A stretch of DNA of 51,192 bases from a virus (IMGVR_UViG_2627854098_000004), one strand, 5' to 3'; shown: positions 1,613 to 51,192, counted from the stretch's first letter. Made by a program: numbers and translations. The notes: generated by a model not told the origin, from the letters alone.

Positions 1613-2470
1613 ATGATACAGAGTCGAAAAATCAAAGAGTTAAAAAATTTTCTTGGAATAAATGTCTTAAAATCGTGCACGAAAAATCAATAAATTACAT
1701 AACATTAAAGAAGAATATTCCAAGCCTTCATGAGGTCACCACCTGTTTTCTGGTGTCATTCAGACGTGATTTGCCCCAGATTGGGAAAGCAAGCTTTTTT
1801 TTCTCAGCTTATTCCGTTTTGCCTGTGTGTTGAATAATTCCACTGCAGTTATATAAAATCGGTAACGGCTAGAAATCATTCAATACTCGCACTATCGGAA
1901 GTTCACCAGTCAACCGCGGTACGTTCTTGTATACAAGGTGCCGCGGTTTCCTTAATAATTTTTAGCAGTACTGTGTGAATGATGAGCGCCCTAAATCCAT
2001 GCATGATGCGTAGTGCCTGTTGTGCATCTTTCCGCGTCTCTTTTTACTAGACCAAAACCAATGATGCTTGCAATACCATTCCCGCCAGGCTCACAGAACA
2101 AATATCCCTTATCATCGACGCATAAGCGACACTAATCAGCAAAACCTAGGATGTATTGCTCTTGCCGGCACCTCCGGGAAAAATGTTTACTGCGCAATAA
2201 ATGAAAATAGCTCATCAACGTGCCGAGAATTAGCTATGTCTTGTGAGAAAAGAAACATCAATGATGCGTACAGCCGCACGAATACTTCTTATATTTTACT
2301 GTTAAACCGATACTTTTGTATCCTAACGAATACTTGACAAGATTATCTCCATCTTGGTAGATAAACCTCAGAAGGTTTTTGACAGGTGGATTTCTGTTCA
2401 GAAGGTCAATAAAGCTCTTCTCTATCATTAGTCAAATGTACAACATGGCTGTCTAAATAACGGAGTACTC

Positions 2471-3250
2471 ATGAATTTTACGTTTACTGACTCTGGATAC
2501 ACTGAAACAAATAAAAACAATCCCCCAATCATATTCGTTCATGGATTTTTCATGAATAATGAAATGTTCAAATACCAGTTTGACGAACTAAAAGAAAAAC
2601 ATAGAGTTGTTTGCATTAATGTTCGGGGATTCGATGCTCTCTCCGAAAAAATTGAGCCATTCTCGCTCTATGACATCGTTGATGACATTTTAAACGTCGC
2701 AGACTCACTACAACTGGATAAGTTTATTTTAGGTGGAATGTCGATGGGCGGATATATATCATTACGATTTGCCCTGTCACATTCAGAACGTTTGTCAGGG
2801 CTAATCCTTATGGCAACTCAGGCAGAGCAGGATCCGCCAGAAATCGCGTCCAGTTACATGGAGTTATGTAATGGATGGCAAGACCCAATCATAAAGGAAA
2901 ATATAATCAACTCATTATTACCCGTTTTTTTCGGAAATGATATCTCTGAAGCAGAGACATGGAGACAGGTATGGCTAGGCCATAAACCTGAAAATATCAT
3001 AAAGGCCATGAATGCAATGCTGGAGCGCGACGACATTTCAGAAAGAATCCAGATAATCACAATCCCCACGCTGATTATTCATGGTGCCAACGATATGGGG
3101 ATACCATTAGAGAAAGCAATTCAAATGCACAAAATGATTGCGCATTCTAAGCTTGAAGTCATTCCCGACGCAAATCATGCTCTAAATATCACTCATGCAA
3201 AGGAAGTAAATACAGCGATAAAAAACTGGCTGCAAAACAATCATATATAA
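2471..3250 (+). CDS. alpha/beta-fold hydrolase (moron, att-proximal)
   Basis: 259-aa ORF with RBS GGAG upstream; nucleophile elbow GGMSMGG (G-x-S-x-G) and candidate acid and His residues near the C-terminus; AT-rich compared with the lambda-like genes. Confidence 0.75.
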   Translation: MNFTFTDSGYTETNKNNPPIIFVHGFFMNNEMFKYQFDELKEKHRVVCINVRGFDALSEKIEPFSLYDIVDDILNVADSLQLDKFILGGMSMGGYISLRFALSHSERLSGLILMATQAEQDPPEIASSYMELCNGWQDPIIKENIINSLLPVFFGNDISEAETWRQVWLGHKPENIIKAMNAMLERDDISERIQIITIPTLIIHGANDMGIPLEKAIQMHKMIAHSKLEVIPDANHALNITHAKEVNTAIKNWLQNNHI

Positions 3251-3287
3251 AATTAATTATAACACATATTAATTTCTTAATTATATT

Positions 3288-3313
3288 ACGCCCGTAAAAC
3301 TGTAGCGGGCGTA
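3288..3313. terminator. hairpin between convergent genes (possible bidirectional terminator)
   Basis: 8-bp stem TACGCCCG/CGGGCGTA with a 10-nt loop, in the gap between the hydrolase (+) and the membrane-protein gene (-); flanking runs are A/T-rich but not clean U-tracts. Confidence 0.35.
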
Positions 3314-3451
3314 TGTTGTCACTCTGGTAGTGCCAGCCTCTCAATATCAGGTGCAGTTGATGTATCAACACGGTTCAGCAACACCCGATACTTTTTCCAG
3401 GCTTCCAGCAACGGGGTTTCTTCCTCCGTTGCATATACAGCTCACCTTTTT

Positions 3452-3745
3452 TCACCCACGATTAACCAACAGCCAGACCAGCAGACACGCCACCACCGGC
3501 ACAGCAAAATCCATCAGGCTTGCCACATCCCAAGCACGCGGATCAAAACCGCCCCACCACGGCATATTCATTCGCTTGCCATGCCCGAACATTTCAATCC
3601 AGCGATATTCTGCCTGGGTATGTTCACGCGCAATGAAGAACGTACAACCGGCTATCGCTCCGTAAGCCCAGTTTCCGGTAAAAAGACCAACCAGTATCTG
3701 CGCAGCCACAGCACAAAGTGCATGAAGTAAGGGGCTTATATCCAT
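3452..3745 (-). CDS. small membrane protein (97 aa, two predicted hydrophobic helices)
   Basis: ORF with strong RBS AGGAGG overlapping the stop of the upstream gene; hydrophobic N- and C-terminal segments; function unknown. Confidence 0.55.
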   Translation of the reverse strand: MDISPLLHALCAVAAQILVGLFTGNWAYGAIAGCTFFIAREHTQAEYRWIEMFGHGKRMNMPWWGGFDPRAWDVASLMDFAVPVVACLLVWLLVNRG

Positions 3746-3757
3746 TATTTCCTCCTT

Positions 3758-4036
3758 TCAGCTCCATTCCCGAAGCGGTGTTTCCAGCTCCACGACATAA
3801 TCAGAGAATACAGAAACATCAAACAAGTCATCAAGAATGCGAATGTTGACAAAATAACCATCATTCCGGATACAGACAGGTTCTCCCTCTTCTGTTACCC
3901 CTGTTTCTGTGTAGGTGAAACCAATTTCATCAACTAACAGTTTATTCTGGAGGTCTTCATCTTCCGCCCAGCCAAGAGATGACAGGAAGGCCTTAAACTG
4001 CAGTTTGTCATGAAACTTCAAAGTTAAATCTTTCAT
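3758..4036 (-). CDS. hypothetical protein (92 aa) immediately downstream of the side tail fibre gene
   Basis: ORF start overlaps the stf stop by 4 nt (translational coupling); acidic protein; sits where a tail-fibre assembly gene would be but does not look like lambda Tfa. Confidence 0.5.
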   Translation of the reverse strand: MKDLTLKFHDKLQFKAFLSSLGWAEDEDLQNKLLVDEIGFTYTETGVTEEGEPVCIRNDGYFVNIRILDDLFDVSVFSDYVVELETPLREWS

Positions 4037-6096
4037 ACGACCTCTTTTAATTGCCTGTCATTTAATTCTTTATGCCATATGCGGAAATTGCGAATATGGC
4101 CAAACAGATGTCGTTCTCCAGTATTCGTCTGCCCTCCAAATCGGATATTTTTATCAGCGGTCACGCCATTATATTCACAATAAACTTCATTAACCGCTTT
4201 ACCATTTGTCACCACATGAAAGTGACCATCAGCTTTTGCAATACATCCAAATGTGGTTTTCTCTGCAAATACATCTGTCGCTGCGCTATTAACATACGAG
4301 CCTGAAGGGTTTGACAGACTCATATATAACTTACCACTACCTCTGTTGACTGCTGCAATTGCTGATTGCCCGGTATTGGCTGCTGCTATATCCCACACGC
4401 GGGGTGCGGCGTTTGGTGCAATATCCCAGTTTTTATGAATCTCAAGTAAAAAAGTAAATGGTAACTTATAAAGATTATTTCTGGTGGGGATACTAACCAA
4501 ATCACTGGCTCTTGTCGTTGCGCTGCCTCCTGAAATAATAAATGATGATACACACGGCCCATTCTCTACTTGTGGGGTGGCAAGATAAATATAGTCACCA
4601 GATACTGTTGCCCCACCCTTCTCAGGAGAATACTGTATCTGAGAGCCTATTTTTAACTCACCATCAATTGCCTGAATCGTTGCCTCTGCAAAAATCCAGC
4701 CCGTGGTCTTATCCTTCCTGACTCGTGCCGTAATTCTGCCGGCAGCACCACCTGTCATATTAATTTCAAGCGTTTGCGTATCAATGTACGCATCGCCAAG
4801 AAAAGTTGTTGCACTTCCGTCATATTTATCAAACCGGATTCGCAACCTTACCTGCAGTTCTGTTTTAAAGCGACATGAGGTTGTCACGTATTTATTATCG
4901 CCTGAGACATCAACTGACTTTGTTGCAGCAATTGATGCCATATTAATAGCCGAAGTTTGCCCAACCAGAGAATCGTTGCAGACAAACTTTCCATAAGTAA
5001 AACCAAAACTATCCGTCCCGGTTTCGGGCACATCCATGTTTGATGACTTCCCCCAGCTGGCTGGACTTTCCGAATTGAGCATGTAGTTCGTTCTTTGTCC
5101 CTCAATAAGCAGGCCATCACACTCAAATCGCGGCTCATTAATTTCCGCCGTTTTCAGTTCGCCAGATTTGTTGATATATGTTGCCGTTGATGCGCGACTG
5201 AAATTAACCTGTTTATCACTGGCGACCTGAACCACATCGTCACCAATAGCTATTTTTTTATAGCCCGGAGAAAAACCCGCAATCATATCCAGTGAATCGT
5301 TAAACGGTATCCACACATCAGGCAGCGGCGGCACTATATTCGCATAGGGCTCTGCAGTCACTTCCGCTGCGGCTTCTGCGCGGTCTGCCGCCTTTTCAGC
5401 TCGTGTCGCTGCCGACAGAGCCTCATCCTTTTTCTGCCCGGCCTTTGTTGCGTCTGCTGCAGCCTCCCGCGCTTTTGTGGTGGCGACTCCGGCATTTTCA
5501 GCGGCTGACTCTGCATTACGGCGGGAAGCCTCTTCACTGTCTGCGGAGGCTTCTTCTGACGCACGGGCATTTGTCTCTGAACGTTCTGCCGCTGTTGCTG
5601 CGTTTTGTGCGGCTGTTTTTGAAGAAGCTGCCGCTTTCGCGCTGTTACCTGCATTCGTCTCTGATGTTTTCGCCGCGTTCCTGGACGATGCCGCTGCTGT
5701 TTCTGATTTCTTTGCTGCCGCTGCGCTCTGAGAGGCGGCTTCAGCGTTGCGTGCCACATCCTCCACCATTTCCTGAAAACGGCGCAATGCCTCCGGCATG
5801 ACATCATCTTCCGTCATGGCACCGAGAAAATCATTCAGCGTCCCCGGACTGGAACCTTCATAGACGGTAATGGTCCCAACATGTGATGGCTGAGAACCCT
5901 CAATCCACAGGATGACGCTGTACTGACCATACTCAACGTCCATACTGTAACGCCCGGCTTCATCAGGATTTTCAGAGGCCACCGTGTTCACCAGTACCGT
6001 GGTGCTGTTACGCTTTGCCTTCAGTTGAATAGTGCAGTTCTGTATTGGTTTTCCCGCACCATCTTTCAGCACACCTGAGATTTTTACTGCTGCCAT
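4033..6096 (-). CDS. stf: side tail fibre protein (Stf-like; lambda-type N-terminus, Ala/Ser-rich low-complexity shaft, distinct C-terminal domain)
   Basis: ORF 4033..6102; likely start ATG 6096-6094 (MAAVKISGVLKDG, as in lambda Stf) with GGAG upstream. Confidence 0.8.
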   Translation of the reverse strand: MAAVKISGVLKDGAGKPIQNCTIQLKAKRNSTTVLVNTVASENPDEAGRYSMDVEYGQYSVILWIEGSQPSHVGTITVYEGSSPGTLNDFLGAMTEDDVMPEALRRFQEMVEDVARNAEAASQSAAAAKKSETAAASSRNAAKTSETNAGNSAKAAASSKTAAQNAATAAERSETNARASEEASADSEEASRRNAESAAENAGVATTKAREAAADATKAGQKKDEALSAATRAEKAADRAEAAAEVTAEPYANIVPPLPDVWIPFNDSLDMIAGFSPGYKKIAIGDDVVQVASDKQVNFSRASTATYINKSGELKTAEINEPRFECDGLLIEGQRTNYMLNSESPASWGKSSNMDVPETGTDSFGFTYGKFVCNDSLVGQTSAINMASIAATKSVDVSGDNKYVTTSCRFKTELQVRLRIRFDKYDGSATTFLGDAYIDTQTLEINMTGGAAGRITARVRKDKTTGWIFAEATIQAIDGELKIGSQIQYSPEKGGATVSGDYIYLATPQVENGPCVSSFIISGGSATTRASDLVSIPTRNNLYKLPFTFLLEIHKNWDIAPNAAPRVWDIAAANTGQSAIAAVNRGSGKLYMSLSNPSGSYVNSAATDVFAEKTTFGCIAKADGHFHVVTNGKAVNEVYCEYNGVTADKNIRFGGQTNTGERHLFGHIRNFRIWHKELNDRQLKEVV

Positions 6097-6105
6097 ATCC
6101 ACTCC

Positions 6106-6133
6106 ACAAAAAAGCCCGCCTGAACCGGCGGGC
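6106..6133 (-). terminator. intrinsic terminator downstream of lom
   Basis: On the - strand GCCCGCC-GGTTCA-GGCGGGC followed by TTTTTTGTGG. Confidence 0.6.
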
Positions 6134-6160
6134 TGTCATAACACTGTGTTGCCTGGTTAA

Positions 6161-6760
6161 TCAGAATTTATAACCGACACCAACGATGAAACCGTCAGTG
6201 CGCCAGTCGCCACTGCCGGAACCTTCATAAGCAATATCAATGGCCACGGATTCGGTCGGGTTAAACTGCACGCCAGCCCCCCACGCCAGAGACGTGTCGC
6301 TGTAGCGACCGTCATCACTTCCGGTCAGCACATCGTCCGTTTTCCCCTTGTTATCAGTTACGCGGAGATAATCCCCGGAGAAAGTCGACACACGGCTGTA
6401 AGCCACGCCCGCCATCGCATACGTGCTGAACCATTCATTCACGCGTACAGACGGCCCCGCCATCATGCTGAACCAGCGGTTACGCACGGAATCTTCATGC
6501 CAGCGGGTATCGCTGTAGTGCGTTTTTTGCTCATCCTCAGCATTGGCATAACTGAAGGACGTAATCAGCCCCAGCGCGTCCGTAAACTCATAACGGTATT
6601 TCACGTTAATCCCGTTCAGATTATCGCTGCCGGGAGCGTTCGTACGGGCATGAAGATACCCCGCGCTCAGTGTGGACTGATGTTCAGACGCCCATGCAGG
6701 CGCACCGGATACGGACAGACAGATGGCTGCGGACAAAATGGCTGCACATAATTTACGCAT
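6161..6760 (-). CDS. lom: Lom outer-membrane protein (Ail/Lom family)
   Basis: 199-aa ORF with signal peptide; near-identical to lambda Lom as I recall it; position between J and stf as in lambda. Confidence 0.85.
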   Translation of the reverse strand: MRKLCAAILSAAICLSVSGAPAWASEHQSTLSAGYLHARTNAPGSDNLNGINVKYRYEFTDALGLITSFSYANAEDEQKTHYSDTRWHEDSVRNRWFSMMAGPSVRVNEWFSTYAMAGVAYSRVSTFSGDYLRVTDNKGKTDDVLTGSDDGRYSDTSLAWGAGVQFNPTESVAIDIAYEGSGSGDWRTDGFIVGVGYKF

Positions 6761-6782
6761 AATTACCTCTCGCTTTTCTGCA

Positions 6783-6809
6783 ATAAAAAAGGCGCCATTT
6801 CTGGCGCCC
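6783..6809 (-). terminator. intrinsic terminator downstream of J
   Basis: On the - strand GGCGCC-AGAAAT-GGCGCC followed by TTTTTTATT, directly after the J stop at 6828. Confidence 0.65.
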
Positions 6810-6827
6810 GTATTGGGGTTATAAAAT

Positions 6828-9800
6828 TCAGCTAATCGTGATGCCTGCAGTGGCTTTCTTCATCACAACAACCAGCAAATCGCTGATACTTGCTGTGGGA
6901 TACCAGCCATTTACCCACCATGCTGATACAGAAAACTCCAGCGTCATGTCGCCGCGACCAGCAGGCATATCAATAACACCACTGTAAACCAGCGTATTAT
7001 CCATCGCGGTACGGTTATAAATTTCAGCACCGTTTTTCTTCACTATCAGGCGGCATGACGAATAAGTATCGCTGTTCTCCCGCTCATGTCTGGCACCGCT
7101 GAAAGCCACCGCCGGAATAACAATCTGCCGGTTAAACGGCTGATCGTCATAAACCCTGACGGTAATGGTTCCTGATGGCCAACGCTTCGGTGCACGGGAG
7201 TCACGAGGGAAAGCCTTACCCACTGTTTTAACGAGATCGCCTTCAATCTGGTTTGCAGACAGTTTCCCTCTGATGACACAGTTCTCGTTAATGGTGACAT
7301 TATTGAGCGTGCCGGTATTCGCCGTGATGGCTCCACTGATATCCGCATTGCGGGCTGTCAGCCTGCCATCCGGCGTCAGGGAAAACGTCGGAGGATTGCC
7401 GGATGACGTGATGCTCACCGCAAACAGTCGCTTCAGGAACACGTCGTTCATGAACAGCTGATTCCCCTGCGCCACAAACAGCGGCGTGGTGTTGCCGTTC
7501 TCCGGGGTAATCATCGCAATGCGATCGGCCTGCAGCAGAATGTTACTCAGGGTCTGACCATCAACATCCTCAATCCCCGCACCAATCCCGGCCACATAGG
7601 GAATACCGTTTTTTGTTTTCTGCACCTTCAGCATATACATGGCATTCAGCTCATTGCGCGTGTCTGACTGAACCCGCTGGATTTGCTGTATGGTCACGGC
7701 CTGGTCACCCAGCTTTTTATCCGTGGTCGAGGTAATTTCACTCCCTTTTTTATCCACGTACTGGCGGACCTGTGCTATCTGTCGGGCGTTTTCTGACTGC
7801 CCCTGGCTGACAGTCTGTGAGATTTCACTGCTCACCCGGTCCACTTTCTGGCTCACCTGCGCGATGGCCAGTGTCTGATCCTCATTCTTTTTCGCAACCA
7901 GCTGCGTGAGGCTGTTTTCCGCCTTCCCGATTTTCCGGGTCACTTCTGCGATATCCGTGTCCATCCGCTGACGGATATCTTCTTCCAGTTGCGTGACCTC
8001 CGTACGCAGCGCTGAAGCATCAATGCGCTCTTTCAGTGCCTGACCCAGAAGCGTCTCATCTATCAGCCCCCGGAAAATTTCCAGATACCCTTCACCATCA
8101 TTGCTGGGCTGCCCGCTGGCTTCCACAAAAGCAGATTTTCCCACCAGGTTGACGCTTCGCACGTAAAACCAGAAATCCGTTCCCGGCTTAATCCGGCTCC
8201 CCTGGACAGTCCACTGACTGCCGGTCCCCAGATAACGGGCAGATTTTTCCACCTGTGCTGTGTTCGTGATGCGTTTTTTCTGAGAACCAGAATTCAAACT
8301 GTACCGTCGGGTCATACACCGCAAGACGCGGGACCGCCGTTATCTGAAAATACCCCGGCGTCAGCTCAATGGTGGCGGGTTTTGCAGGTGCGTTAATCCG
8401 GAACGATACCGACGCCGGATCGCCCTGCTGTCCCCGGGCATTTACCGCCCGGACCGTCAGCGTGTAACGCCCCAGCGCCAGCTGCCTGAAGCGGTAAGTG
8501 GTTTCCGCCGTCCGGGCCGTGCTGACCAGCCGCTCACTGCCGTCATCCGCTGTTACGGTCAGACGGAGCAGGAAGCTCACGCCCTTCACCACCTTCGGCG
8601 TGTCCCAGCGCGCCAGCACCTGATATTCCCCGCTGTCTGCGGTGACTTCGGCGGTCAGGTGCTGCACCGCTGGCGGCGTGACACCATTCACCGTGCCGCT
8701 CTGGTCGCCGTCAAAGTGCGCTCCGTTATCCACGATGGCCTCTTTTTCCGGTACATGCTGCACGGCGGTGATGGCATACGTGCCGTCATCGTTCTCACGG
8801 ATACTCACGCAGCGGAACAGGCGCTGGCGCAACGTCGGCAGCTTCAGTCCCCATACGCTGTATTCTGCAACGCCGTCAGGAACACGGCTCACTTTTACCT
8901 TCACGCCGTCGGTGACGGACTGGACCTCCACGCTGACCGGATTCCCCTGTCCGTCAGCCAGGCTTATCAGCGTGGTGCCGGAGGATGGCAGCGTGATTTC
9001 ACGGTCGAGCGTCAGTGTCCGCGTCTGGTTGTTCACCGCCAGCACGCGCCCGCCGATGCTGATCCCCGCATAGTCATCATCACAGATTTCAATGACATCG
9101 CCCGGTACATGGCGAAGCCCTTCTGCACCCACGCTGAAGTCCACGGTCTGCGTTTCCAGCAGCTCCGTTTTAATCAGCCACAGCCCGGCGCGGTGTGCCT
9201 GCCCCCGGCTGGTACAGCCAAAGGCATCCATCTTCGTGACGTTACGACCGTAACGGGCAATGGCCTGCGTGTCCTCCACAAGCTCTGTCGCCGTCTCCCA
9301 GCCGTTATCCGGGTCAATCCAGTTCACCTCAACGGCATTATGGCGGTCTTTCAGGGCGCTGAAGCTGTAGCGGAACGGCGCGCCATCATCCGGCATCACC
9401 ACATTACTGCGGTTATAGGTCCACACCTTATCCGACGGTCGGTCCTGCACGAATGTCAGCGTCTGCCCGTTCCATACCGGCATACAGCGCATCGCCGAGC
9501 AAAAATCACTGAGCACATCCCACGCCTTGCGCTGTGTGGTCAGGTACGCATTACAGGTGATGCGCGGCTCCGTGCCGCCAAAGCCGTCCGGCACTGACTG
9601 GTCGCAATTCTGGCCGATGACATACAGCGCCCATTTATCCACATCTGCCGCACCAAGACGTTTCCCCATGCCGTAGCGCGGATGGGTCAGCATATCCCAC
9701 AGACACCAGGCCATGTTGTTGCTGTATGCTGGCTTAAACGTTCCGTCCCAGATACCGCTGTATTGCCGCGTCTGCGGGTTATAGTTCGACGGCACCTGCA

Positions 9801-10527: not shown

Positions 10528-10540
10528 TCCTCATGCTCCA

Positions 10541-10569
10541 TAAACGATAAAACCGCCCGGAGGCGGTTT
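10541..10569 (-). terminator. hairpin with following U-run in the 60-nt I-J spacer (possible attenuator)
   Basis: On the - strand AAACCGCC-TCCG-GGCGGTTT followed by TATCGTTTATGG, between the I stop (10588) and the J start (10527). Confidence 0.3.
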
Positions 10570-10587
10570 CACATAAAACATTTTGCA

Positions 10588-41520: not shown

Positions 41521-41566
41521 TTAACCGTCAGCAGGACGCTGGAAGCCAAATGGAACAGACTGGCAG

Positions 41567-41611: not shown

Positions 41612-41709
41612 GATCACCCAACCACATAAGCTGTGGGATGCAATGCCGAAGCAACCGTCTCAGGAGGAGCTTCGAGATTGCATCGCCAAAGTTTATTCGG
41701 GAGGAATCC

Positions 41710-41798: not shown

Positions 41799-41835
41799 GT
41801 AAGCGTGCAGCAAGAACCGTATTGACGGGGATGTG

Positions 41836-43374: not shown

Positions 43375-43423
43375 AAGCCCGTATTTTACCGGGCTTATTC
43401 TGTGACAACCAGGATAAAGAGAT

Positions 43424-43771
43424 TTACAGCATGGTCAGGGAGGTCAGCAGCCGCTTAGGCTGTCGCCAGTCGATACCTTCCAGCAGCATCGCCAGCTGCG
43501 CCTGTGTAAGGAACACTTTGCCATCACGGGCTGACGGCCAGGCGAAGCGCCCACGCTCCAGCCGTTTGGTCAGGAGGCACAGTCCGTCACCGGTGGACCA
43601 CAGCAGTTTAACCTGACTGCCGCTGCGGCCCCGGAAAATGAAAACATGGCCGGACATGGGATCGTCTTTCAGCGCCGTCTGTACTTTCGCAGCCAGGCCG
43701 TTGAAGCCATTTCTCATATCAGTGATACCGGCAACCAGCCAAATTTTGGTCCCGGAAGGTAACGGGATCAT
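43424..43771 (-). CDS. IS66-family TnpB
   Basis: 115 aa; [27 protein letters not shown]. Confidence 0.85.
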
Positions 43772-44169
43772 CGCTTCAGTTCCTGTATCAGCAGAGTCAG
43801 GAGCTTTTCGCTGACATTGCCATTGAAGCGGAGCGTCCCGTGCCGGAACGTTACCTCACAGCTGATACTGAGGGTTTCCGGGTCCTCTGCGAGCGATTCT
43901 GGCTGTTCGGCAGCTGCATCGAGAGTCACAGGAAGTAGCTGGGGGCTCTCTGAAGAAGGTAATAGCAGCTTTCCCTCGCGCCATTGTTGTCGCCATTTGA
44001 ACAACAGATTGGCGTTAATGCCATTTTCAAGAGCAAGTTTTGAGATGGATATCCCGGGTTCACAGGAGGCAGCAACGAGCTGCTGTTTAAATTCGGGAGG
44101 ATAATTAGGGCAGCCTTTTCGCCTGCCGGGAGTCACATTTTTCTGCATATCTGACACTTTGGTTCCCAC
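43768..44169 (-). CDS. IS66-family TnpA
   Basis: 133 aa; ATGA-type overlap with tnpB. Confidence 0.8.
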   Translation of the reverse strand: MGTKVSDMQKNVTPGRRKGCPNYPPEFKQQLVAASCEPGISISKLALENGINANLLFKWRQQWREGKLLLPSSESPQLLPVTLDAAAEQPESLAEDPETLSISCEVTFRHGTLRFNGNVSEKLLTLLIQELKR

Positions 44170-44240
44170 TACTTATTTGGTGGACACCACTTTGTCTAAT
44201 TCGTCAGATTCTGACCAGACGGTTCAGGCTGTACGCTTAC

Positions 44241-44432
44241 ATCAGCTCCGACAAGCTACACAGGCCAACCCCTTCACGAGTGGTCTTGCAATGCAAGCTC
44301 AAACCAGCAATGAGAGCAGAAGTGATAACTCTGACAACGTTGACCAGAAAATATGAAGGTTCAACTTGTCTTCCGAACGTAGCTCTTTACGCGGCAGGCT
44401 ACCGGAAATCAAAACAACTGACGGCGAGATGA
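44241..44432 (+). pseudogene. N: N antiterminator, 3' fragment
   Basis: In-frame continuation of the 41710 ORF once the IS and one target-duplication copy are removed; stop TGA at 44430-44432; reconstructed N is 90 aa. Confidence 0.5.
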
Positions 44433-44448
44433 TAAATTCATTTGCTAA

Positions 44449-45030
44449 TTACTTGTTTTTGCCATGCTTATCCTGAGCGATAAGTTCATCCATAAGGCTG
44501 TCTGCCTTCCCGGCAAACCTAATGTAGCACTCATGTCTATAGCTTTCAGGGATAACGAAACGGTCGGTATCAGGATATCCAACAGCAGGAGGCCTTCGAA
44601 CGAGGAGTCCTTTTTTGAGCAATGAAATTGATTCATGAGCGCCCTTTTCCGTTTGTAGCTGGTTATTAGCGGCTACAGCGAATGCCAAATACGCTCTTTC
44701 TCCAAGAGTTAACGAATCAAACAAATCTTGCACATATTTTTCTTCTTTAGATTTGCGCTTCTGAGCAGCGAATACCTCAATTCTTTCAGTCACAGCGTGA
44801 TAAGCGGAATTAACAACGCCGTTAAGCACATAGCTAACGCAAAACAACAGGATGTAATACATCCAGTAATGAGGAAGGATTTCTGGATTATGCAGGTTTA
44901 TCCATTCTTTTACGCTTACCGGCATAACAATAATCAATATGATCAGGATGATTAGCATATGAATCAACTGTTTAAGTGTCATTCCTTGCAGGAAAAAATG
45001 CATTAGTTCCTGCCACCATGAGTTGTTCAT
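44449..45030 (-). CDS. sieB: superinfection exclusion protein SieB-like membrane protein
   Basis: 193 aa; N-terminal hydrophobic segment LIHMLIILIILIIVMPV; located between N and ral as sieB is in lambda. Confidence 0.65.
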   Translation of the reverse strand: MNNSWWQELMHFFLQGMTLKQLIHMLIILIILIIVMPVSVKEWINLHNPEILPHYWMYYILLFCVSYVLNGVVNSAYHAVTERIEVFAAQKRKSKEEKYVQDLFDSLTLGERAYLAFAVAANNQLQTEKGAHESISLLKKGLLVRRPPAVGYPDTDRFVIPESYRHECYIRFAGKADSLMDELIAQDKHGKNK

Positions 45031-45243
45031 CGGCGTTTCTCTTTTGCTCTCTGTAGGGGTGAATAGAGTTTATCCGATTTCTCGTTGTAGGGGTACACGA
45101 GAACCACCGAGCCTGATGTGGTTAAAAGACAGGCACAATCTTTACTACCGCAATCCACTATTTAAGGTGATATATGGAAGAAGAATTTGAAGAGTTCGAA
45201 GAGCATCCTCAAGATGTGATGGAACAATACCAGGACTATCCGT

Positions 45244-45444
45244 ATGACTACGACTATTGATACAAATCAATGGTGTGGACAATTCAAACGATGCAATGGA
45301 TGCAAGCTGCAATCGGAATGCATGGTTAAGCCTGAAGAAATGTTTCCTGTAATGGAAGATGGGAAATATGTCGATAAATGGGCAATACGAACGACGGCAA
45401 TGATTGCCAGAGAACTTGGTAAACAGAACAACAAAGCTGCCTGA
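45244..45444 (+). CDS. ral: Ral restriction-alleviation protein
   Basis: 66 aa; near-identical to lambda Ral. Confidence 0.85.
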   Translation: MTTTIDTNQWCGQFKRCNGCKLQSECMVKPEEMFPVMEDGKYVDKWAIRTTAMIARELGKQNNKAA

Positions 45445-45580
45445 TAGTGGCCTTTATTTTTGGCATAAATAACAGAATAAACACTGCACTGTGTATTCAT
45501 TCCAACGAGTGAATACACGGAGCAATGTCGCTCGTAACTAAACAGGAGCCGACTTGTTCTGATTATTGGAAATCTTCTTT

Positions 45581-45606
45581 GCCCTCCAGTGTGAGGGCGA
45601 TTTTTT
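45581..45606 (+). terminator. intrinsic terminator between ral and ea10 (tL-type)
   Basis: GCCCTC-CAGTGT-GAGGGC followed by GATTTTTTAT. Confidence 0.55.
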
Positions 45607-45626
45607 ATCTATGAGGATATGAATAG

Positions 45627-45995
45627 ATGTCAAACATCAAAAAATACATCATTGATTACGACTGGAAAGCATCAATAGAAATTGAAATTGACCATGACGT
45701 AATGACAGAGGAAAAACTTCACCAGATTAATAATTTCTGGTCAGACTCTGAATACCGACTCAATAAACACGGCTCTGTATTAAATGCTGTATTAATCATG
45801 CTGGCGCAACATGCTCTGCTTATAGCAATTTCAAGCGACTTAAATGCATATGGTGTTGTGTGTGAGTTCGACTGGAATGATGGAAATGGTCAGGAAGGAT
45901 GGCCTCCAATGGATGGTAGTGAAGGAATAAGAATTACCGATATCGATACATCAGGAATATTTGATTCAGATGATATGACTATCAAGGCCGCCTGA
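45627..45995 (+). CDS. ea10: Ea10-like protein
   Basis: 122 aa; matches lambda Ea10 as I recall it. Confidence 0.7.
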   Translation: MSNIKKYIIDYDWKASIEIEIDHDVMTEEKLHQINNFWSDSEYRLNKHGSVLNAVLIMLAQHALLIAISSDLNAYGVVCEFDWNDGNGQEGWPPMDGSEGIRITDIDTSGIFDSDDMTIKAA

Positions 45996-46067
45996 GCGCG
46001 GCGTTACCGCATACCAATTACGCTTCACTCGAGGCGTTTTTCGTTATGTATAAATAAGGAGCACACC

Positions 46068-46232
46068 ATGCAATATGCCATTGCAGGGTGGCCTGTTGCT
46101 GGCTGCCCTTCCGAATCTTTACTTGAACGAATCACCCGTAAATTACGTGACGGATGGAAACGCCTTATCGACATACTTAATCAGCCAGGAGTCCCAAAAA
46201 ATGGATCAAACAATTATGGCTATCCAGACTAA
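46068..46232 (+). CDS. cIII: CIII (FtsH inhibitor, 54 aa)
   Basis: ATG 46068 with [64 protein letters not shown]; below the ORF-track cutoff. Confidence 0.85.
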   Translation: MQYAIAGWPVAGCPSESLLERITRKLRDGWKRLIDILNQPGVPKNGSNNYGYPD

Positions 46233-46344
46233 ATTCACTATCGCCACTTTTATTGGCGATGAAAAGATGTTTCGTGAGGCCGTCGACGCTTATAAAAAAT
46301 GGATATTAATACTGAAACTGAGATCAAGCAAAAGCATTCACTAA
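46201..46344 (+). CDS. kil: Kil (host cell-division inhibitor, 47 aa)
   Basis: ATG 46201 overlapping the end of c[25 protein letters not shown]...; lambda Kil-like. Confidence 0.65.
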
Positions 46345-46419
46345 CCCCCTTTCCTGTTTTCCTAATCAGCCTGGCATTTCGCGGGCGATATTTTCACAGC
46401 CATTTTCAGGAGTTCAGCC

Positions 46420-46716
46420 ATGAACGCTTATTACATTCAGGATCGTCTTGAGGCTCAGAGCTGGGCGCGTCACTACCAGCAGATCGCCCGTGAAGAGAAA
46501 GAGGCAGAACTGGCAGACGACATGGAAAAAGGCCTGCCCCAGCACCTGTTTGAATCGCTATGCATCGATCATTTACAACGCCACGGGGCCAGCAAAAAAG
46601 CCATTACCCGTGCGTTTGATGACGATGTTGAGTTTCAGGAGCGCATGGCAGAACACATCCGGTACATAGTTGAAACCATTGCTCACCATCAGGCTGATAT
46701 TGATTCAGAGGTATAA
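46420..46716 (+). CDS. gam: Gam (RecBCD inhibitor, short form; the long-form start at 46299 is out of frame)
   Basis: 98-aa ORF equal to lambda GamS; the upstream GamL start ATG 46299 runs into a stop; 418 nt from that ATG to the gam stop against 417 expected. Confidence 0.85.
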
Positions 46717-46721
46717 AACGG

Positions 46722-47507
46722 ATGAGTACAGCACTCGCAACGCTGGCAGGGAAGCTGGCTGAACGTGTCGGCATGGATTCTGTCGACCCACAGGAACTGA
46801 TCACCACTCTTCGCCAGACGGCATTTAAAGGTGATGCCAGCGATGCGCAGTTCATCGCATTGTTGATCGTCGCCAACCAGTACGGCCTTAATCCGTGGAC
46901 GAAAGAAATTTACGCCTTCCCTGATAAGCAGAACGGCATTGTTCCGGTGGTGGGCGTTGATGGCTGGTCCCGCATCATCAATGAAAACCAGCAGTTTGAT
47001 GGTATGGACTTTGAGCAGGACAATGAATCATGTACATGCCGGATTTACCGCAAAGACCGCAATCATCCGATCTGCGTTACCGAGTGGATGGATGAATGCC
47101 GCCGCGAACCATTCAAAACCCGCGAAGGCAGAGAAATCACGGGGCCGTGGCAGTCGCATCCCAAACGGATGTTACGGCATAAAGCCATGATTCAGTGTGC
47201 CCGTCTGGCCTTCGGATTTGCTGGTATCTATGACAAGGATGAAGCCGAGCGCATTGTCGAAAATACCGCATACACTGCAGAACGTCAGCCGGAACGCGAC
47301 ATCACTCCGGTTAACGATGAAACCATGCAGGAGATTAACACTCTGCTGATTGCCCTGGACAAAACATGGGATGACGACTTATTGCCGCTCTGTTCCCAGA
47401 TATTTCGCCGCGACATTCGCGCATCGTCAGAACTGACACAGGCCGAAGCAGTGAAAGCTCTTGGATTCCTGAAACAGAAAGCCACTGAGCAGAAGGTGGC
47501 AGCATGA
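46722..47507 (+). CDS. bet: Bet (Red-beta single-strand annealing protein)
   Basis: 261 aa; near-identical to lambda Bet. Confidence 0.9.
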
Positions 47508-48184
47508 CACCGGACATTATCCTGCAGCGTACCGGGATCGACGTGAGAGCTGTCGAACAGGGGGATGATGCATGGCACAAATTACGGCTCGGCGTCATCA
47601 CCGCTTCAGAAGTTCACAACGTGATAGCAAAGCCCCGCTCAGGAAAGAAGTGGCCTGACATGAAAATGTCCTACTTCCACACCCTGCTGGCTGAGGTTTG
47701 CACCGGTGTGGCTCCGGAAGTTAATGCTAAGGCGCTGGCGTGGGGAAAACAGTACGAGAACGACGCCAGAACCCTGTTTGAATTCACTTCCGGCGTGAAT
47801 GTTACTGAATCCCCGATCATCTATCGCGACGAAAGTATGCGCACCGCCTGCTCTCCCGATGGTTTATGCAGTGACGGCAATGGCCTTGAGCTGAAATGCC
47901 CGTTTACCTCCCGGGATTTCATGAAGTTCCGGCTCGGTGGTTTCGAGGCCATAAAGTCGGCTTACATGGCCCAGGTGCAGTACAGCATGTGGGTGACACG
48001 AAAAGATGCCTGGTACTTTGCCAACTATGACCCACGAATGAAGCGTGAAGGCCTGCATTATGTCGTGGTTGAGCGGGATGAAAAGTACATGGCGAGTTTT
48101 GACGAGATGGTGCCGGAGTTCATCGAAAAAATGGACGAAGCACTGGCTGAAATTGGTTTTGTATTTGGAGAGCAATGGCGATGA
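47504..48184 (+). CDS. exo: Exo (lambda exonuclease)
   Basis: 226 aa; near-identical to lambda Exo. Confidence 0.9.
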
Positions 48185-48363
48185 CCCATCCTCACGATAA
48201 TATCCGGGTAGGCGCGATCACTTTCGTCTACTCCGTTACAAAGCGAGGCTGGGTATTTCACGGTCTTTCTGTTATCCGAAATCCGCTGAAAGCCCAGCGG
48301 CTGGCTGAGGAGATAAATAATAAACGGGGGGCGGTATGCACAAAGCATCTCCTGTTGAGTTAA
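48175..48363 (+). CDS. lambda orf60a-like protein
   Basis: 62 aa; lies directly downstream of exo. Confidence 0.55.
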
Positions 48364-48527
48364 GAACGAGTATTGATTTGGCACATAGCCTTGCTCAAAT
48401 TGGAGTCAGGTTTGTGCCAATACCAGCAGAAACAGACGAAGAATTTCATACGTTAGCCACATCCCTTTCACAAAAGCTGGAAATGATGGTGGCGAAAGCA
48501 GAAGCAGATGAGAGAGACCAGGTATGA
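48336..48527 (+). CDS. lambda orf63-like protein
   Basis: 63 aa; lies between exo and xis. Confidence 0.55.
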   Translation: MHKASPVELRTSIDLAHSLAQIGVRFVPIPAETDEEFHTLATSLSQKLEMMVAKAEADERDQV

Positions 48528-48537
48528 CAACCACTGA

Positions 48538-48720
48538 ATGCATTTTTCTGGCAGCGGGCTTCATATTCTGTGTGCTTATGCTTGCCGACATGGGGCTTGT
48601 TCAGTGACACCTCAGCAAGAAAACGCCCTTCGCAGCATTGCCCGTCAGGCTAATTCTGAAATCAAAAAAGTCAGACAGCAGTTTCCAAAAACGTCAATGA
48701 CATTTGCCGTAGCGTACTGA
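48538..48720 (+). CDS. hypothetical protein (lambda orf61 region; possibly frameshifted)
   Basis: 60-aa ORF; a separate 27-codon ORF starting at 48524 (MTTTECIFLAAGFIFCVLMLADMGLVQ) lies in another frame just upstream. Confidence 0.3.
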   Translation: MHFSGSGLHILCAYACRHGACSVTPQQENALRSIARQANSEIKKVRQQFPKTSMTFAVAY

Positions 48721-48913
48721 AGAAGCACCGCGAAACGGTAACGCTGAAGGGATTCACACCGACTCATTTAAGCCTGGCAATCGGCATGTTAAACGGCGTC
48801 TTTAAGGAACGATGAACATGAAAAGCAAAATTATCAGGGAGCTACAGGCTCCTTTTTTATTGTTCGCATTCACCCTCAAGCGTATTAACCAACAGTTCAG
48901 GGATTAATGAAAG

Positions 48914-49135
48914 ATGGCAGACATCATTGATTCAGCATCAGAAATAGAAGAATTACAGCGCAACACAGCAATAAAAATGCGCCGCCTGAACTACCTGGCT
49001 GTATCTGCCACTCATTGTTGTGAGTGTGGCGATCCGATAGATGAACGAAGACGCCTGGCCGTTCAGGGTTGTCGGACTTGCGCCAGTTGCCAGCAAGATC
49101 TGGAGCTTATCCGCAAACAAAGGGGGATTAAGTGA
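48914..49135 (+). CDS. TraR/DksA-family C4 zinc-finger protein
   Basis: 73 aa with CCECGDPID...CRTCASC four-cysteine motif. Confidence 0.65.
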   Translation: MADIIDSASEIEELQRNTAIKMRRLNYLAVSATHCCECGDPIDERRRLAVQGCRTCASCQQDLELIRKQRGIK

Positions 49136-49461
49136 TGGCTAACCTGCAACTTGCTGTTAAAAGTGAATACTTCGATGCCATGATTCGCGGAGAGAAAACG
49201 GAAGAGTATCGCTTGTGTAATGACTACTGGAATAAGCGAATTATGTTCCGGGAATATGACCGCCTGATTATCACAAAGGGATATCCGAAGCGCGACGATT
49301 CCAGTCGCAGAATTGATGTTCCGTATGACGGATATGAAGTGAAGACAATCACACATCCGCACTTTGGCGATAAACCGGTAAAGGTGTTCGCTATAAAGGT
49401 GAATATCAGCACTGAATATCAATCCGCACAACACAAGGTCAAGAATGTTCAGAGTGATTGA
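49132..49461 (+). CDS. hypothetical early-left protein (109 aa)
   Basis: Start overlaps the upstream stop; no recognisable motif. Confidence 0.5.
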   Translation: MMANLQLAVKSEYFDAMIRGEKTEEYRLCNDYWNKRIMFREYDRLIITKGYPKRDDSSRRIDVPYDGYEVKTITHPHFGDKPVKVFAIKVNISTEYQSAQHKVKNVQSD

Positions 49462-49684
49462 CCCTAACACCTGGTACGTCGACCACCACGGCACTCCCTG
49501 CAAAATCCTGCGTTCTACCCACAACAAAGTTCACTACATCCGAAAAGGCAGAACATGTATCGCCAGCATGTTCCGCTTTAATCATGACTTTGAACCTGTG
49601 AATAAAGCTGATGCAGATCGGATAGCAGAAGAGATCGAAACGGCAGAACACATTAAGAAGTTACGTGACATGCGCAGGAAATAG
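49445..49684 (+). CDS. hypothetical early-left protein (79 aa)
   Basis: ORF in the early-left operon; no recognisable motif. Confidence 0.45.
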   Translation: MFRVIDPNTWYVDHHGTPCKILRSTHNKVHYIRKGRTCIASMFRFNHDFEPVNKADADRIAEEIETAEHIKKLRDMRRK

Positions 49685-49823
49685 AAAAATTGATAAATTC
49701 AATACTGCATTTCTCAGCATTAAATTTATCTCTATGACCAGTCAAGAGATGTACCTGCCATGAGCTTAATATCATGTCAGATATATCGGTCACAAACTCC
49801 CTCAGCAGCTAAGAGGAGGACAA

Positions 49824-50060
49824 ATGTCTCGACTAATCACTTTACAGGACTGGGCTAAAGAAGAATTTGGGGACTTAGCACCAAGTGAGCGAGTTCTGAA
49901 AAAATACGCGCAAGGGAAAATGATGGCCCCACCCGCTATAAAAGTTGGTCGCTACTGGATGATTGACCGAAATTCCCGTTTTGTAGGAACGCTTGCAGAA
50001 CCGCAACTCCCAATAAACGCAAACCCAAAACTCCAAAGGATAATCGCTGATGGCTGCTAG
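49824..50060 (+). CDS. xis: excisionase Xis
   Basis: 78 aa; RBS GGAGGA; overlaps the int start by 11 nt as in lambda. Confidence 0.8.
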   Translation: MSRLITLQDWAKEEFGDLAPSERVLKKYAQGKMMAPPAIKVGRYWMIDRNSRFVGTLAEPQLPINANPKLQRIIADGC

Positions 50061-51192
50061 ACCCCGATCTCACAAAATCTCTATACCCAATTTATATTGC
50101 AAATTAGATAAGCGAACCGGAAAGGTATATTGGCAATACAAACATCCACTATCCGGTCGTTTTCATAGCTTAGGAACTGATGAGAATGAAGCAAAACAAG
50201 TTGCTACTGAAGCAAATACCATTATTGCTGAACAACGTACCAGACAAATATTAAGCGTCAATGAGCGTCTGGAAAGAATGAAAGGCAGGCGCTCAGACAT
50301 TACGGTGACAGAATGGCTTGATAAATATATTTCTATCCAAGAGGACAGGCTGCAACATAATGAACTAAGACCCAACTCCTATCGGCAAAAAGGCAAACCC
50401 ATTCGTCTTTTCCGTGAGCATTGTGGAATGCAACACCTCAAGGATATTACCGCACTTGATATTGCCGAAATAATTGATGCTGTAAAGGCTGAAGGTCATA
50501 ACAGGATGGCGCAAGTCGTGAGAATGGTGTTGATCGACGTCTTCAAAGAAGCACAACACGCAGGACATGTTCCGCCAGGATTTAACCCAGCGCAGGCAAC
50601 AAAACAACCGCGAAATCGAGTAAACCGCCAAAGATTGTCACTGCCCGAATGGCAGGCAATATTTGACAGCGTAAGCAGACGGCAGCCCTATTTAAAATGC
50701 GGCATGCTACTTGCTCTTGTTACTGGACAACGTTTAGGCGATATCTGCAATTTGAAATTCTCTGATATATGGGACGACATGTTGCACATTACTCAGGAAA
50801 AAACCGGTTCAAAACTTGCTATTCCGCTTAACCTGAAATGCGATGCTCTGAATATTACCCTTCGTGAAGTTATATCTCAGTGCAGGGATGCTGTTGTTAG
50901 TAAATATCTGGTCCATTACCGTCACACTACCTCTCAAGCAAACAGAGGAGACCAGGTTTCTGCGAATACTCTGACAACGGCTTTTAAAAAGGCCCGGGAA
51001 AAATGTGGCATAAAATGGGAGCAAGGAACTGCGCCCACATTTCATGAGCAGCGATCTCTGTCAGAACGGTTATATCGGGAACAGGGTCTGGATACGCAAA
51101 AGTTGTTAGGCCATAAATCCAGAAAAATGACCGACCGATACAATGATGATCGTGGTAAAGACTGGATTATCGTAGATATCAAAACAGCATAG
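50050..51192 (+). CDS. int: lambda-family tyrosine integrase
   Basis: 380 aa; C-terminal catalytic region HEQRSLSERLY...LLGHKSRKMTDRYNDDRG parallels lambda Int HELRSLSARLY...LLGHKSDTMASQYRDDRG; ends at the window edge. Confidence 0.9.
   Translation: MAARPRSHKISIPNLYCKLDKRTGKVYWQYKHPLSGRFHSLGTDENEAKQVATEANTIIAEQRTRQILSVNERLERMKGRRSDITVTEWLDKYISIQEDRLQHNELRPNSYRQKGKPIRLFREHCGMQHLKDITALDIAEIIDAVKAEGHNRMAQVVRMVLIDVFKEAQHAGHVPPGFNPAQATKQPRNRVNRQRLSLPEWQAIFDSVSRRQPYLKCGMLLALVTGQRLGDICNLKFSDIWDDMLHITQEKTGSKLAIPLNLKCDALNITLREVISQCRDAVVSKYLVHYRHTTSQANRGDQVSANTLTTAFKKAREKCGIKWEQGTAPTFHEQRSLSERLYREQGLDTQKLLGHKSRKMTDRYNDDRGKDWIIVDIKTA

Follow-up and report, generated by a model that had tools for sequence, protein, structure and literature searches.

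A lambdoid half-hybrid prophage at icd in Escherichia coli APEC IMT5155, probably immobilised by a chromosomal inversion and two IS insertions

Phage 21 and e14 integrate at icd with duplication of the icd 3' end, and recombination between resident lambdoid prophages is well known to rearrange the chromosome. The domestication of defective prophages is likewise an established general phenomenon. DLP12, Rac, Qin and the Sakai Sp prophages of E. coli K-12 and O157 were immobilised by IS elements or rearrangements with their expressed cargo kept, as in the prophage described here; unlike it, however, they are old and heavily deleted. Its closest relatives are PhiR63_2 (PV340574.1), PhiR57_1 and ev017, with which it shares the icd-type int/xis, the early-left operon, N, the cI-cro immunity, the cassette at the rexAB position, O/P, the nin region with Dam, Q, the porin, the lysis genes, bor/iss and the TonB_C gene.

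The window (the whole stretch of DNA analysed, 51,192 nucleotides) is 100% identical to NZ_CP005930.1 (E. coli APEC IMT5155) and contains a lambdoid prophage that adjoins icd on the IMT5155 chromosome. Strain IMT5155 (ST140, O2:K1:H5) was isolated from chicken in 2000; strain and prophage have been published before, as a poultry E. coli and a lambda-like element. The prophage starts at position 1613, as given in the original prediction, directly after a 3' copy of serU, and its integrase gene ends at 51192, with icd directly beyond (Table 1). The gene order in the PGAP tables is that of lambda (NC_001416) in both the structural arm (Nu1-A-W-B-C-D-E-FI-FII-Z-U-V-G-T-H-M-L-K-I-J-lom-stf) and the regulatory arm (int-xis-exo-bet-gam-kil-cIII-N-cI-cro-cII-O-P-ren-nin-Q-S-R-Rz-bor). 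A cos of the lambda type with 12-nt cohesive ends is present near Nu1; its flanks align to the lambda cos region, cosN is identical to that of lambda, and the site is now split by ISCro1. The I and K proteins are ~94-95% identical to those of lambda. The prophage differs from lambda in integrase and att (icd, not attB-lambda), in N (90 aa), Q and nin content, in having a two-gene cassette for rexAB, and in its extra porin, TonB_C lipoprotein and Dam.

Identity to the isolated phages PhiR63_2, ev017 and phage 21 is ~100% or 98.7%. Compared with PhiR63_2, no differences were found over the 6,952 bp of 44241-51192, the disputed indel in O is the sole difference over the 5.3 kb of 36531-41798, and four positions differ in 28866-36536 (one substitution and three single-base indels). 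The structural arms of PhiR63_2 and phage 21 are ~98.7% identical to that of the window; in phage 21 (OL657228.1) the 98.7% refers to the head and tail module, across 84% of the left 24.5 kb. PhiR63_2 differs in having no IS in N or cos, matching att ends with sitABCD adjoining its att, an IS200-family insertion between ren and ninB, and another type of J C-terminus and side fibre, and it is without lom and the hydrolase. Phage 21, which is free and plaque-forming, has neither the IS insertions nor the inversion, and its distal tail end and cargo are different. The ancestor at the icd site was probably a temperate phage of the phage-21/PhiR63_2 type, whose native cargo would have comprised iss/bor, an OmpC-like porin, the TonB_C lipoprotein, Dam, SieB, Ral, the two-gene cassette at the rexAB position, and sitABCD. 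PGAP names the lysis and Q genes of the window after DLP12 (essD, rrrD, rzpD, quuD).

Table 1. Features of the IMT5155 prophage and its left border (positions in the window)
Feature	Position	Strand	Basis or remark
serU (tRNA-Ser) 3'-end fragment	1550-1612	.	att remnant, left prophage end; 63 bp, 96.8% match to L008:29156-29218
Left arm, from serU-integrating lambdoid phage	1613-8853	-	PGAP; diverges from un-inverted ST95 prophage of K56-43-un
Alpha/beta hydrolase	2471-3250	+	PGAP; Pfam Abhydrolase_1
Tail-fibre-assembly remnant	3319-3432		Left arm; PGAP
Side tail fibre	4033-6096		Left arm; PGAP
lom	6161-6760		Left arm; PGAP; Pfam Ail_Lom
Tail tip gene J	6828-10527	-	Frameshifted in IMT5155 assembly
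Inversion crossover zone (J N-terminal part, I, 3' end of K)	8854-11137	-	Four-way alignment
Overlapping tail genes I and K	10588-11902	-	I 10588-11259 with lambda-type start; K 11157-11902; tblastn with lambda I, K and DE17 upstream reading frame
K-L-M-H patch	11137-15326	-	Carries other prophage's allele
Tape-measure gene H	12932-15496	-	Frameshifted in IMT5155 assembly
Tail and head module T, G, V, U, Z, FII, FI, E, D, C, B, W, A, Nu1, intact	15489-26037	-	PGAP; identical to DE17
cosB, Nu1-proximal part, severed from cosN	26038-26167	-	Alignment to lambda cos region
ISCro1 (IS66 family; tnpA, tnpB, transposase)	26168-28865	+	Target duplication 26159-26167 / 28866-28874
cosN, 12-nt cohesive end GGGCGGCGACCT	28920-28931	-	Identical to lambda's
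Late and cargo block, all intact	29695-34240	.	PGAP, Pfam
TonB_C lipoprotein	29695-30021	-	Pfam; lipobox LAVGC
iss/bor	30502-30795	+	PGAP
Rz-R-S	30827-31997	-	PGAP
OmpC/NmpC-like porin	32586-33668	+	PGAP, Pfam
Q	33857-34240	-	PGAP
Phage Dam methyltransferase, nin region, intact	35549-36076	-	Pfam Dam, E = 4e-65
Replication gene O	37572-38470	-	Frameshifted in IMT5155 assembly
Immunity region	38941-41273	.	PGAP; Pfam HTH_3 and Peptidase_S24, DUF1828
cro	38941-39156	-	PGAP
cI	39232-39927	+	PGAP
Two-gene cassette at lambda rexAB position	39967-41273	+	PADLOC match PDC-M24 A and B
Antiterminator N, split (90 aa when intact)	41710-44432	+	IS66-family element at 41799-44240, 8-bp target duplication
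sieB (-); ral, ea10-like gene, cIII, kil, gam, bet, exo (+); all intact	44449-48184	.	PGAP
xis and phage-21-type integrase (icd target), both intact	49824-51192	+	PGAP

The two ends of the prophage do not match, the left end being an att fragment of the serU type and the right end of the icd type. The serU fragment is inverted in the chromosome relative to the intact serU gene, and the tRNA-Ser gene lies with a second integrase ~780 kb off, at the other locus. The integrase abuts icd, and the duplicated icd 3' fragment, which in the icd-integrating group lies at the far end, is present but lies next to sitABCD, ~780 kb from the integrase and inverted; in the un-inverted K56-43-un these features are together at one prophage. 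The 2.3-kb crossover zone is without a variable site in the four-way alignment of the two IMT5155 and two DE17 prophages, all four being identical there, and mapping to K56-43-un gives a clean reciprocal exchange. The left arm also takes in the C-terminal part of J. Homologous recombination in this stretch with a second lambdoid prophage at serU would have inverted ~780 kb of the chromosome, leaving a hybrid with a serU-type att at the left and an icd-type att with Int/Xis at the right. Precise excision would therefore be impossible, since the true att partner is distant and inverted. Judged from these alignments, the inversion is a third, apparently real lock that the original prediction overlooked.

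The other two locks are IS insertions. N is interrupted by an IS66-family element after approximately codon 30 and is intact in K56-43-un and PhiR63_2. ISCro1 sits between cosN and Nu1 and separates cosN from most of cosB; its insertion point corresponds to lambda positions ~58-66 in the alignment to the lambda cos region. Two sister strains that were sequenced independently, DE17 (duck, China) and VTB96815v (chicken, South Africa), carry the same prophage with both IS elements, and among 5,426 complete genomes each IS junction was found in just three, namely IMT5155, DE17 and VTB96815v. The inversion and both insertions are probably to be placed in the common ancestor of these three strains. 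The effects of the N, cos and att lesions on function are those that we infer: from lambda biology, the insertion in N would abolish the antitermination by which transcription reaches O, P, Q and the late genes, and ISCro1, which separates the terminase-binding site from the nicking site by 2.7 kb, would inactivate cos. With N split, cos split and the att ends mismatched, all in three independent assemblies, functions essential for lysis or release would be lost, and the view that the prophage is grounded is upheld.

It seems unlikely that positive selection in the ST140 APEC clone favoured the inversion and the two IS insertions as a means of avoiding lethal induction and of securing iss, the porin, immunity and the candidate defence cassette. 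Three independent locks within one prophage would fit such selection, as would an element unchanged in isolates from chicken (2000), duck (China) and chicken (South Africa) and the landing of two IS66-family copies, which occupy 7-14 places per genome, in ~1% of the genome. However, the clone has a high IS load and prophages tolerate insertions, a third ISCro1 copy lies harmlessly in the second prophage of IMT5155, and the un-grounded form is far commoner in ST95-complex genomes. The sample is a single clone, which gives no replication and no statistical power.

The original prediction listed lesions in cos, N, O, H, J and I. All of them are in the deposited sequence, but only the two IS insertions (N and cos) are corroborated. 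In J, the T6 run at 8274-8279 holds an extra T, and the first stop falls at codon 780; the intact protein (1232 aa) is encoded in DE17 and VTB96815v and was found on 16 contigs. O lacks one T in the run at 38009-38013 (T5 vs T6) and first reaches a stop at codon 177, and H, which carries three private +1 insertions (15350, 14155 and 14136; sum +3), does so at codon 66. Both O and H (853 aa) are intact in DE17, VTB96815v, K56-43-un and PhiR63_2. An extra base at 11172 affects both I, at its lambda-type start, and K, at its 3' end, and another at 11271 affects K, a lesion beyond those previously listed; the two bases are present in both IMT5155 prophage copies and in neither DE17 copy. In a search of ~15 billion proteins, the truncated J protein and the N-terminal fragment of H were found on one contig only, that of IMT5155. 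None of the J, I/K, H and O frameshifts is reproduced in the same lineage, all four being intact in DE17 and VTB96815v.

The IMT5155 assembly was made from 454 reads only, at ~23x (PMC4232414); it is dated 2014 and gaps were closed by Sanger sequencing. DE17 and VTB96815v are 100% identical over 51.7 kb, and the window differs from both by the same 99 substitutions and 11 indels, with all substitutions within 11000-15500. Outside the K-L-M-H patch the window and DE17 are separated by three indels (in T6, A7 and T5 runs) and no substitutions. The adjacent 49.9 kb of core DNA likewise shows no substitutions and two homopolymer indels, which "frameshift" fabH and ymfA in IMT5155 only, and one homopolymer indel in another 36 kb frameshifts Q of the other prophage, again in IMT5155 only. 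On these comparisons, the 2014 assembly is most probably in error at the J, I/K, H and O frameshifts. Those in J and O would be homopolymer miscalls, and those in I/K and H appear to fall in the repeat common to the second prophage.

The patch itself has the other prophage's allele at ~100 sites together with five private single-base insertions, and its indel density is far above the assembly baseline (P ~7e-7). It may be a repeat that was collapsed in the assembly, or else a tract of gene conversion. The five indels lie outside long homopolymers and are therefore not classic 454 miscalls. The collapse of two copies that are 2.3% divergent should give a mosaic consensus, yet one uniform allele extends across 11456-15232, so that the allele replacement may be real gene conversion. 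This uniformity also speaks for the idea that the frameshifts are real private mutations of IMT5155, arisen by slippage and after real gene conversion between the prophages and representing neutral post-grounding decay without functional bias. In that case broken N, cos and att would have left the tail and replication genes free to decay. Also, the exact truncated O protein recurs on at least 35 contigs outside IMT5155 (UM146, DEC5C and Logan runs among the assemblies), and the T-run in O may be a genuine slippage hot spot. We nevertheless hold this explanation to be quite improbable. In 51 kb there are eight private single-base indels and not one private substitution, an unnatural spectrum (P ~1e-8, assuming the indel share of ~0.1 known from mutation-accumulation studies), and like indels strike fabH, a gene required for normal growth. 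Independent mutations would also be an odd source of three +1 insertions in H adding up to +3 and of the same two indels in each K copy.

Assembly error, the preferred explanation of the frameshifts, also bears on how the lesions are read as a whole. Every named lysogeny and cargo gene is an intact ORF with the expected Pfam domains, as had been predicted. The further proposal, that all six lesions are real and that restriction to lytic genes reflects selection keeping conversion and defence genes while lytic ability decays, is very improbable. It draws on lesions that do stand in the deposited sequence next to an intact cargo set, on the general occurrence of prophage domestication, and on the position of six out of six lesions in the lytic 58% of the prophage (P = 0.04 at face value). 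However, four of the six are absent from the two sisters that carry both IS insertions, and the private changes outside the patch are indels only, with the signature that breaks core fabH and ymfA. The named cargo set makes up 17.5% of the prophage; the probability that none of six randomly placed lesions falls within it is 0.32, and for two lesions it is 0.68, so that lesion placement does not differ from chance. The restriction of the IS junctions to three genomes also argues against it. As the frameshifts are most probably errors, no decay bias towards lytic genes is demonstrated. In addition, isolated phages that carry this cargo match the right arm almost exactly, which leaves no time for some genes to decay ahead of others. 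Among IMT5155, DE17 and VTB96815v, no corroborated substitutions since grounding were found, and the pattern of domestication, in which kept genes are under purifying selection and others degrade in many lineages, was not seen. Selection for conversion or defence genes is thus unsupported. The prediction had allowed that it would not fit if the frameshifts were assembly errors and the IS insertions alone real; the comparison with related strains, in which the frameshifts vanish and only the two IS insertions remain, indicates this situation but does not prove the error.

We therefore consider it likely, with good confidence, that the window represents the icd-side half-hybrid of two lambdoid prophages, immobilised by an inversion and two IS insertions, and that the frameshifts are most probably assembly errors. 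The prophage is essentially full length and identical in sequence to active phages, which points to a very recent grounding confined to one clone. In view of this near-identity, the intact cargo reflects recency rather than demonstrated selection. The overall picture is one of ordinary, known biology. With the immunity region and the cargo genes untouched, the lysogen should keep its immunity, exclusion and conversion phenotypes.

The window matches the E. coli APEC IMT5155 chromosome, NZ_CP005930.1 4154088..4102897 (reverse strand), at 100% identity and holds a lambdoid prophage of the phage 21 / PhiR63_2 / ev017 type. In the RefSeq annotation the lambda-type gene order is complete, with a structural arm (Nu1 to J, lom, side fibre) and a regulatory arm (int-xis-exo-bet-gam-kil-cIII-N-cI-cro-cII-O-P-ren-nin-Q-S-R-Rz-iss); icd follows directly after the integrase and ISCro1 adjoins Nu1. 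The left boundary had rightly been placed at 1613, next to a copy of the 3' part of the serU tRNA-Ser gene (see the table); only a BLAST search with the serU region revealed this att fragment, and a tRNA scan of the window returned no tRNA gene. The small "ferredoxin" ORF beyond it is probably a spurious call. On the other side, the att fragment abuts a separate integrative, mobilisable island that encodes an HTH regulator, a DUF6387 protein, a SMODS nucleotidyltransferase and SLATT pair (likely a defence module), an H-NS-like protein, RepL, a MobQ relaxase and DotA/TraY. The lysogeny and cargo genes named in the original prediction are all intact with the expected domains, including Bor (annotated iss), Ail/Lom, the porin, Dam, SieB, cI (HTH and S24 peptidase domains), the TonB_C protein with its lipobox and the alpha/beta hydrolase. 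PGAP marks frameshifts in J, K (C40 peptidase), H and O and a split of N by an IS66-family element, and further flags a frameshifted small ZapA-like ORF and two remnants (tail-fibre assembly, DUF1364). The last three are discounted as disabling lesions, since the ZapA-like frameshift and the DUF1364 remnant also occur in PhiR63_2 and in K56-43-un, an ST95 strain with the un-inverted form of the prophage, and PhiR63_2 is without any tail-fibre-assembly gene.

Coordinates of the features discussed (window positions unless a locus is named; L008 and L007, second-prophage locus of IMT5155; L009 and L001, DNA left of the prophage; L015, core DNA right of icd; L010, K56-43-un; L014, PhiR63_2)
Feature	Coordinates	Description
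Island left of prophage	1-1272; L009 2818-28001; L001 157-2040	window part and upstream DNA
serU tRNA-Ser 3' part	1550-1612	63-bp copy
"Ferredoxin" ORF (PGAP)	2013-2135	40 aa, in AT-rich spacer between att fragment and hydrolase gene
J frameshift	8274-8279	extra T in T6 run; first stop codon 780
Stretch holding the exchange	8854-11137	2.3 kb, identical in both prophages
K frameshift	11271, 11172	extra bases; no stop before annotated end; C-terminal part out of frame
H frameshift	15350, 14155, 14136	three extra bases; first stop codon 66
Nu1 start	26037	
ISCro1	26168-28865	target duplication present
cosN (GGGCGGCGACCT)	28920-28931	
Truncated O	37943-38470	176 aa
O frameshift	38009-38013	one T missing from T-run; first stop codon 177
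Two genes downstream of cI	39967-41273	lambda rexAB position
Second IS66-family element	41799-44240	in N; 8-bp duplication
Extra ORF of K56-43-un	L010 42634-43131	498 bp, hypothetical protein; window site 45486-45491
sitABCD of PhiR63_2	L014 42620-46069	whole iron/manganese transporter, adjoining att
Third ISCro1	L008 12747-15362	in reciprocal hybrid prophage
Second integrase	L008 28079-29129	frameshifted
Z at record origin	L007 26581-26878; L008 1-283	chromosome linearised within gene
fabH, ymfA	L015 2154-3108; 34676-35136	one-base A6/A7 difference from DE17

All lesions listed in the original prediction (cos, N, O, H, J and I) exist in the deposited sequence. That in I is justified as well, because the lambda-type start of I, 33 codons upstream of the PGAP start, overlaps K, so that the extra base at 11172 hits both genes. 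In the sister strains DE17 and VTB96815v, J, K, H and O are annotated as intact with identical protein accessions, and the two strains are 100% identical over 51.7 kb. The window differs from both at the same 110 positions, comprising 99 substitutions (all within 11000-15500) and 11 indels. The IMT5155 assembly comes from 454 reads alone (about 23-fold coverage), and its gaps were filled by PCR and Sanger sequencing (PMC4232414). Compared with the sisters outside the 11000-15500 patch, the window has three indels (in T6, A7 and T5 runs) and no substitutions. As a control, the adjacent 49.9 kb of core genome has no substitutions and two indels in A6/A7 runs, which frameshift fabH and ymfA in IMT5155 only; another 36 kb has one T7/T8 indel, which frameshifts Q of the second prophage in IMT5155 only, and three clustered substitutions within an IS. 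This baseline of about 3 indels per 86 kb gives 1.6 expected in the window outside the patch, with 3 observed (P = 0.22), and on that account the frameshifts in J and O resemble the usual homopolymer miscalls of the IMT5155 assembly. When exact sequences were looked up among about 15 billion proteins, the truncated J and the H N-terminal fragment each occurred on one contig (IMT5155), and the intact forms of J, K, H and O on 16, 138, 253 and at least 1000 contigs, respectively. The exact truncated O recurs on at least 35 contigs of unrelated assemblies, including UM146, DEC5C and several Logan runs (L017-L024), so its T-run is either a site of repeated sequencing error or a hot spot of slippage; noisy sequence is indicated in one of these assemblies, where cI is split as well.

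Homopolymer error alone is ruled out as the source of all frameshifts by the patch over K, L, M and H, where five private indels fall within 4.5 kb in runs of 1-2 nt, at a density far over the baseline (P about 7e-7). The patch has the features of a repeat-related low-quality zone rather than of plain homopolymer error. Its origin was traced in a four-way alignment of IMT5155 and DE17, with the icd locus and the second prophage next to sitABCD from each. At about 100 sites in 11456-15232 the window has the allele of the second prophage, and the DE17 icd-locus copy has that of the un-inverted ST95 prophage. Both K indels are present in 2/2 IMT5155 copies and 0/2 DE17 copies; the three H indels and the J indel are found in the window copy only. 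A repeat-related assembly problem, possibly atop real gene conversion, fits the patch indels better. The K-H allele replacement itself is either an assembly artefact or real gene conversion, and its uniformity favours conversion; if the copies were truly identical after conversion, a collapsed contig would account for the same two K errors at both loci. Under either origin the window indels are most simply read as errors; eight private indels with no private substitutions would be an unnatural mutation spectrum. In the reciprocal hybrid prophage, the second IMT5155 copy, Z carries private indels too: it lies at the arbitrary origin of the record, where two single-base insertions break it into three small ORFs; this suggests a scaffold end or gap-closure zone. 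Frameshifts in older 454-only genomes should not be taken as decay without comparison with sister strains, as the error signature of IMT5155 breaks the core gene fabH too.

The two IS insertions are shared by the sister strains, at the same positions in DE17 (duck, China) and VTB96815v (chicken, South Africa). ISCro1 lies inside the cosB segment, with cosN on one side and the Nu1 start on the other, at an insertion point aligned to about lambda positions 58-66. The second element interrupts N (90 aa) after residue ~30, so that the arginine-rich N-terminus is left and the rest is lost. Of 5,426 complete genomes, no more than 3 have these junctions; the grounding is recent and limited to one clone. 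IS66-family elements are abundant in this clone (7-14 places per genome), and a third ISCro1 has a harmless placement between the holin gene and a four-tRNA cluster.

The ends of the prophage are mismatched, with a serU-type att fragment on the left and an icd-type integrase on the right, a lesion absent from the list in the original prediction. At the other locus the order is icd' fragment, sitABCD, tail genes, head genes, early region, second integrase and intact serU, with both att fragments (icd' and serU') in inverted orientation to their partners. The second integrase is frameshifted in IMT5155 and DE17 alike, and this lesion is probably real because both strains have it. K56-43-un has the un-inverted order (icd', sitABCD, tail to int, icd), with all genes intact and no IS. 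When both loci of DE17 and of IMT5155 were mapped on it, a clean reciprocal exchange was obtained within the stretch identical in both prophages. The inversion is judged real from the separation of the loci by about 780 kb in all three assemblies. A separate inversion in IMT5155 with its crossover at 15232-15326 is ruled out, as the other locus also has the serU-type K-H allele. Through the inversion between the two loci, the window prophage is a hybrid, with its left arm (hydrolase, side fibre, lom, J C-terminus) from a serU phage and the rest from the icd phage, and its own Int and Xis would be incapable of precise excision. PhiR63_2 carries the whole sitABCD transporter next to its att; in IMT5155 the inversion shifted sitABCD to the other, reciprocal hybrid prophage. 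The genome paper of IMT5155, published in 2014, makes no mention of the icd-serU inversion or of its effect on sitABCD linkage. The icd..ybcV region that holds the prophage is already on a list of conserved ExPEC genomic regions (PMC12928451). The inversion is an ordinary case of a known process. Lambdoid prophages disrupted by IS elements are well known, as are inversions between prophages resident in one chromosome.

PhiR63_2 and ev017 are taken to be isolated phages from their GenBank records (phage name, propagation host). PhiR63_2 shows no differences from the window over 44241-51192, and over 36531-41798 the disputed O indel is the sole difference; phage 21 is 98.7% identical to the structural arm. 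The cassette downstream of cI is also present in PhiR63_2 and ev017. Both of its genes matched components of PDC-M24, a candidate defence system of PADLOC (A, E = 5e-4; B, E = 5e-10), and Pfam gave DUF6978 (weak, under the curated cut-off) and DUF1828. K56-43-un has an extra ORF between ral and the ea10-like gene, which the window and PhiR63_2 lack.

Thus the observation made in the original prediction is partly confirmed and its interpretation partly supported: a grounded prophage with an intact lysogeny and cargo set is upheld, but the reading of the lesion pattern as selection finds no support in the chance expectation, the sister strains or the phage identity. By comparison with the sister strains, only the IS insertions among the listed lesions appear real and the frameshifts appear to be assembly errors, a case in which that reading had been said not to fit. 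The lesion bias is not significant: the named cargo makes up 17.5% of the prophage, and the probability that random lesions all fall outside it is 0.32 for six lesions and 0.68 for two. The cargo is the native gene set of an active phage, with too little time for decay, since isolated phages with the same cargo are essentially identical in sequence. Nothing in the analysis supports positive selection for grounding. Selection of the triple lock (N::IS66, cos::ISCro1 and the ~780-kb att-swapping inversion) in the ST140 clone of APEC, by which domestication would have been quick, is rated improbable; if true, a fully armed conversion phage (iss, porin, immunity, PDC-M24-like cassette) became fixed chromosomal cargo before sequence decay.

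The sequence itself shows an intact immunity region and intact cargo genes, a split N, a cosN apart from the Nu1-proximal cosB, and att ends that do not match. By analogy with lambda, cI would maintain repression and immunity, and the lysogen could express SieB, Iss/Bor, Lom, the porin, the TonB_C lipoprotein and the cI-linked cassette. SOS induction would trigger transcription from PL and PR, which in the absence of N would halt at the first terminators; even with continued transcription, neither excision nor the start of packaging by terminase would be expected. The element is grounded through three independent, corroborated locks, with these predicted functional effects. The iss/porin prophage of this APEC clone is probably not transmissible, and the real biology is that of the textbook, in which IS insertions and inter-prophage recombination immobilise an iss-carrying conversion phage.
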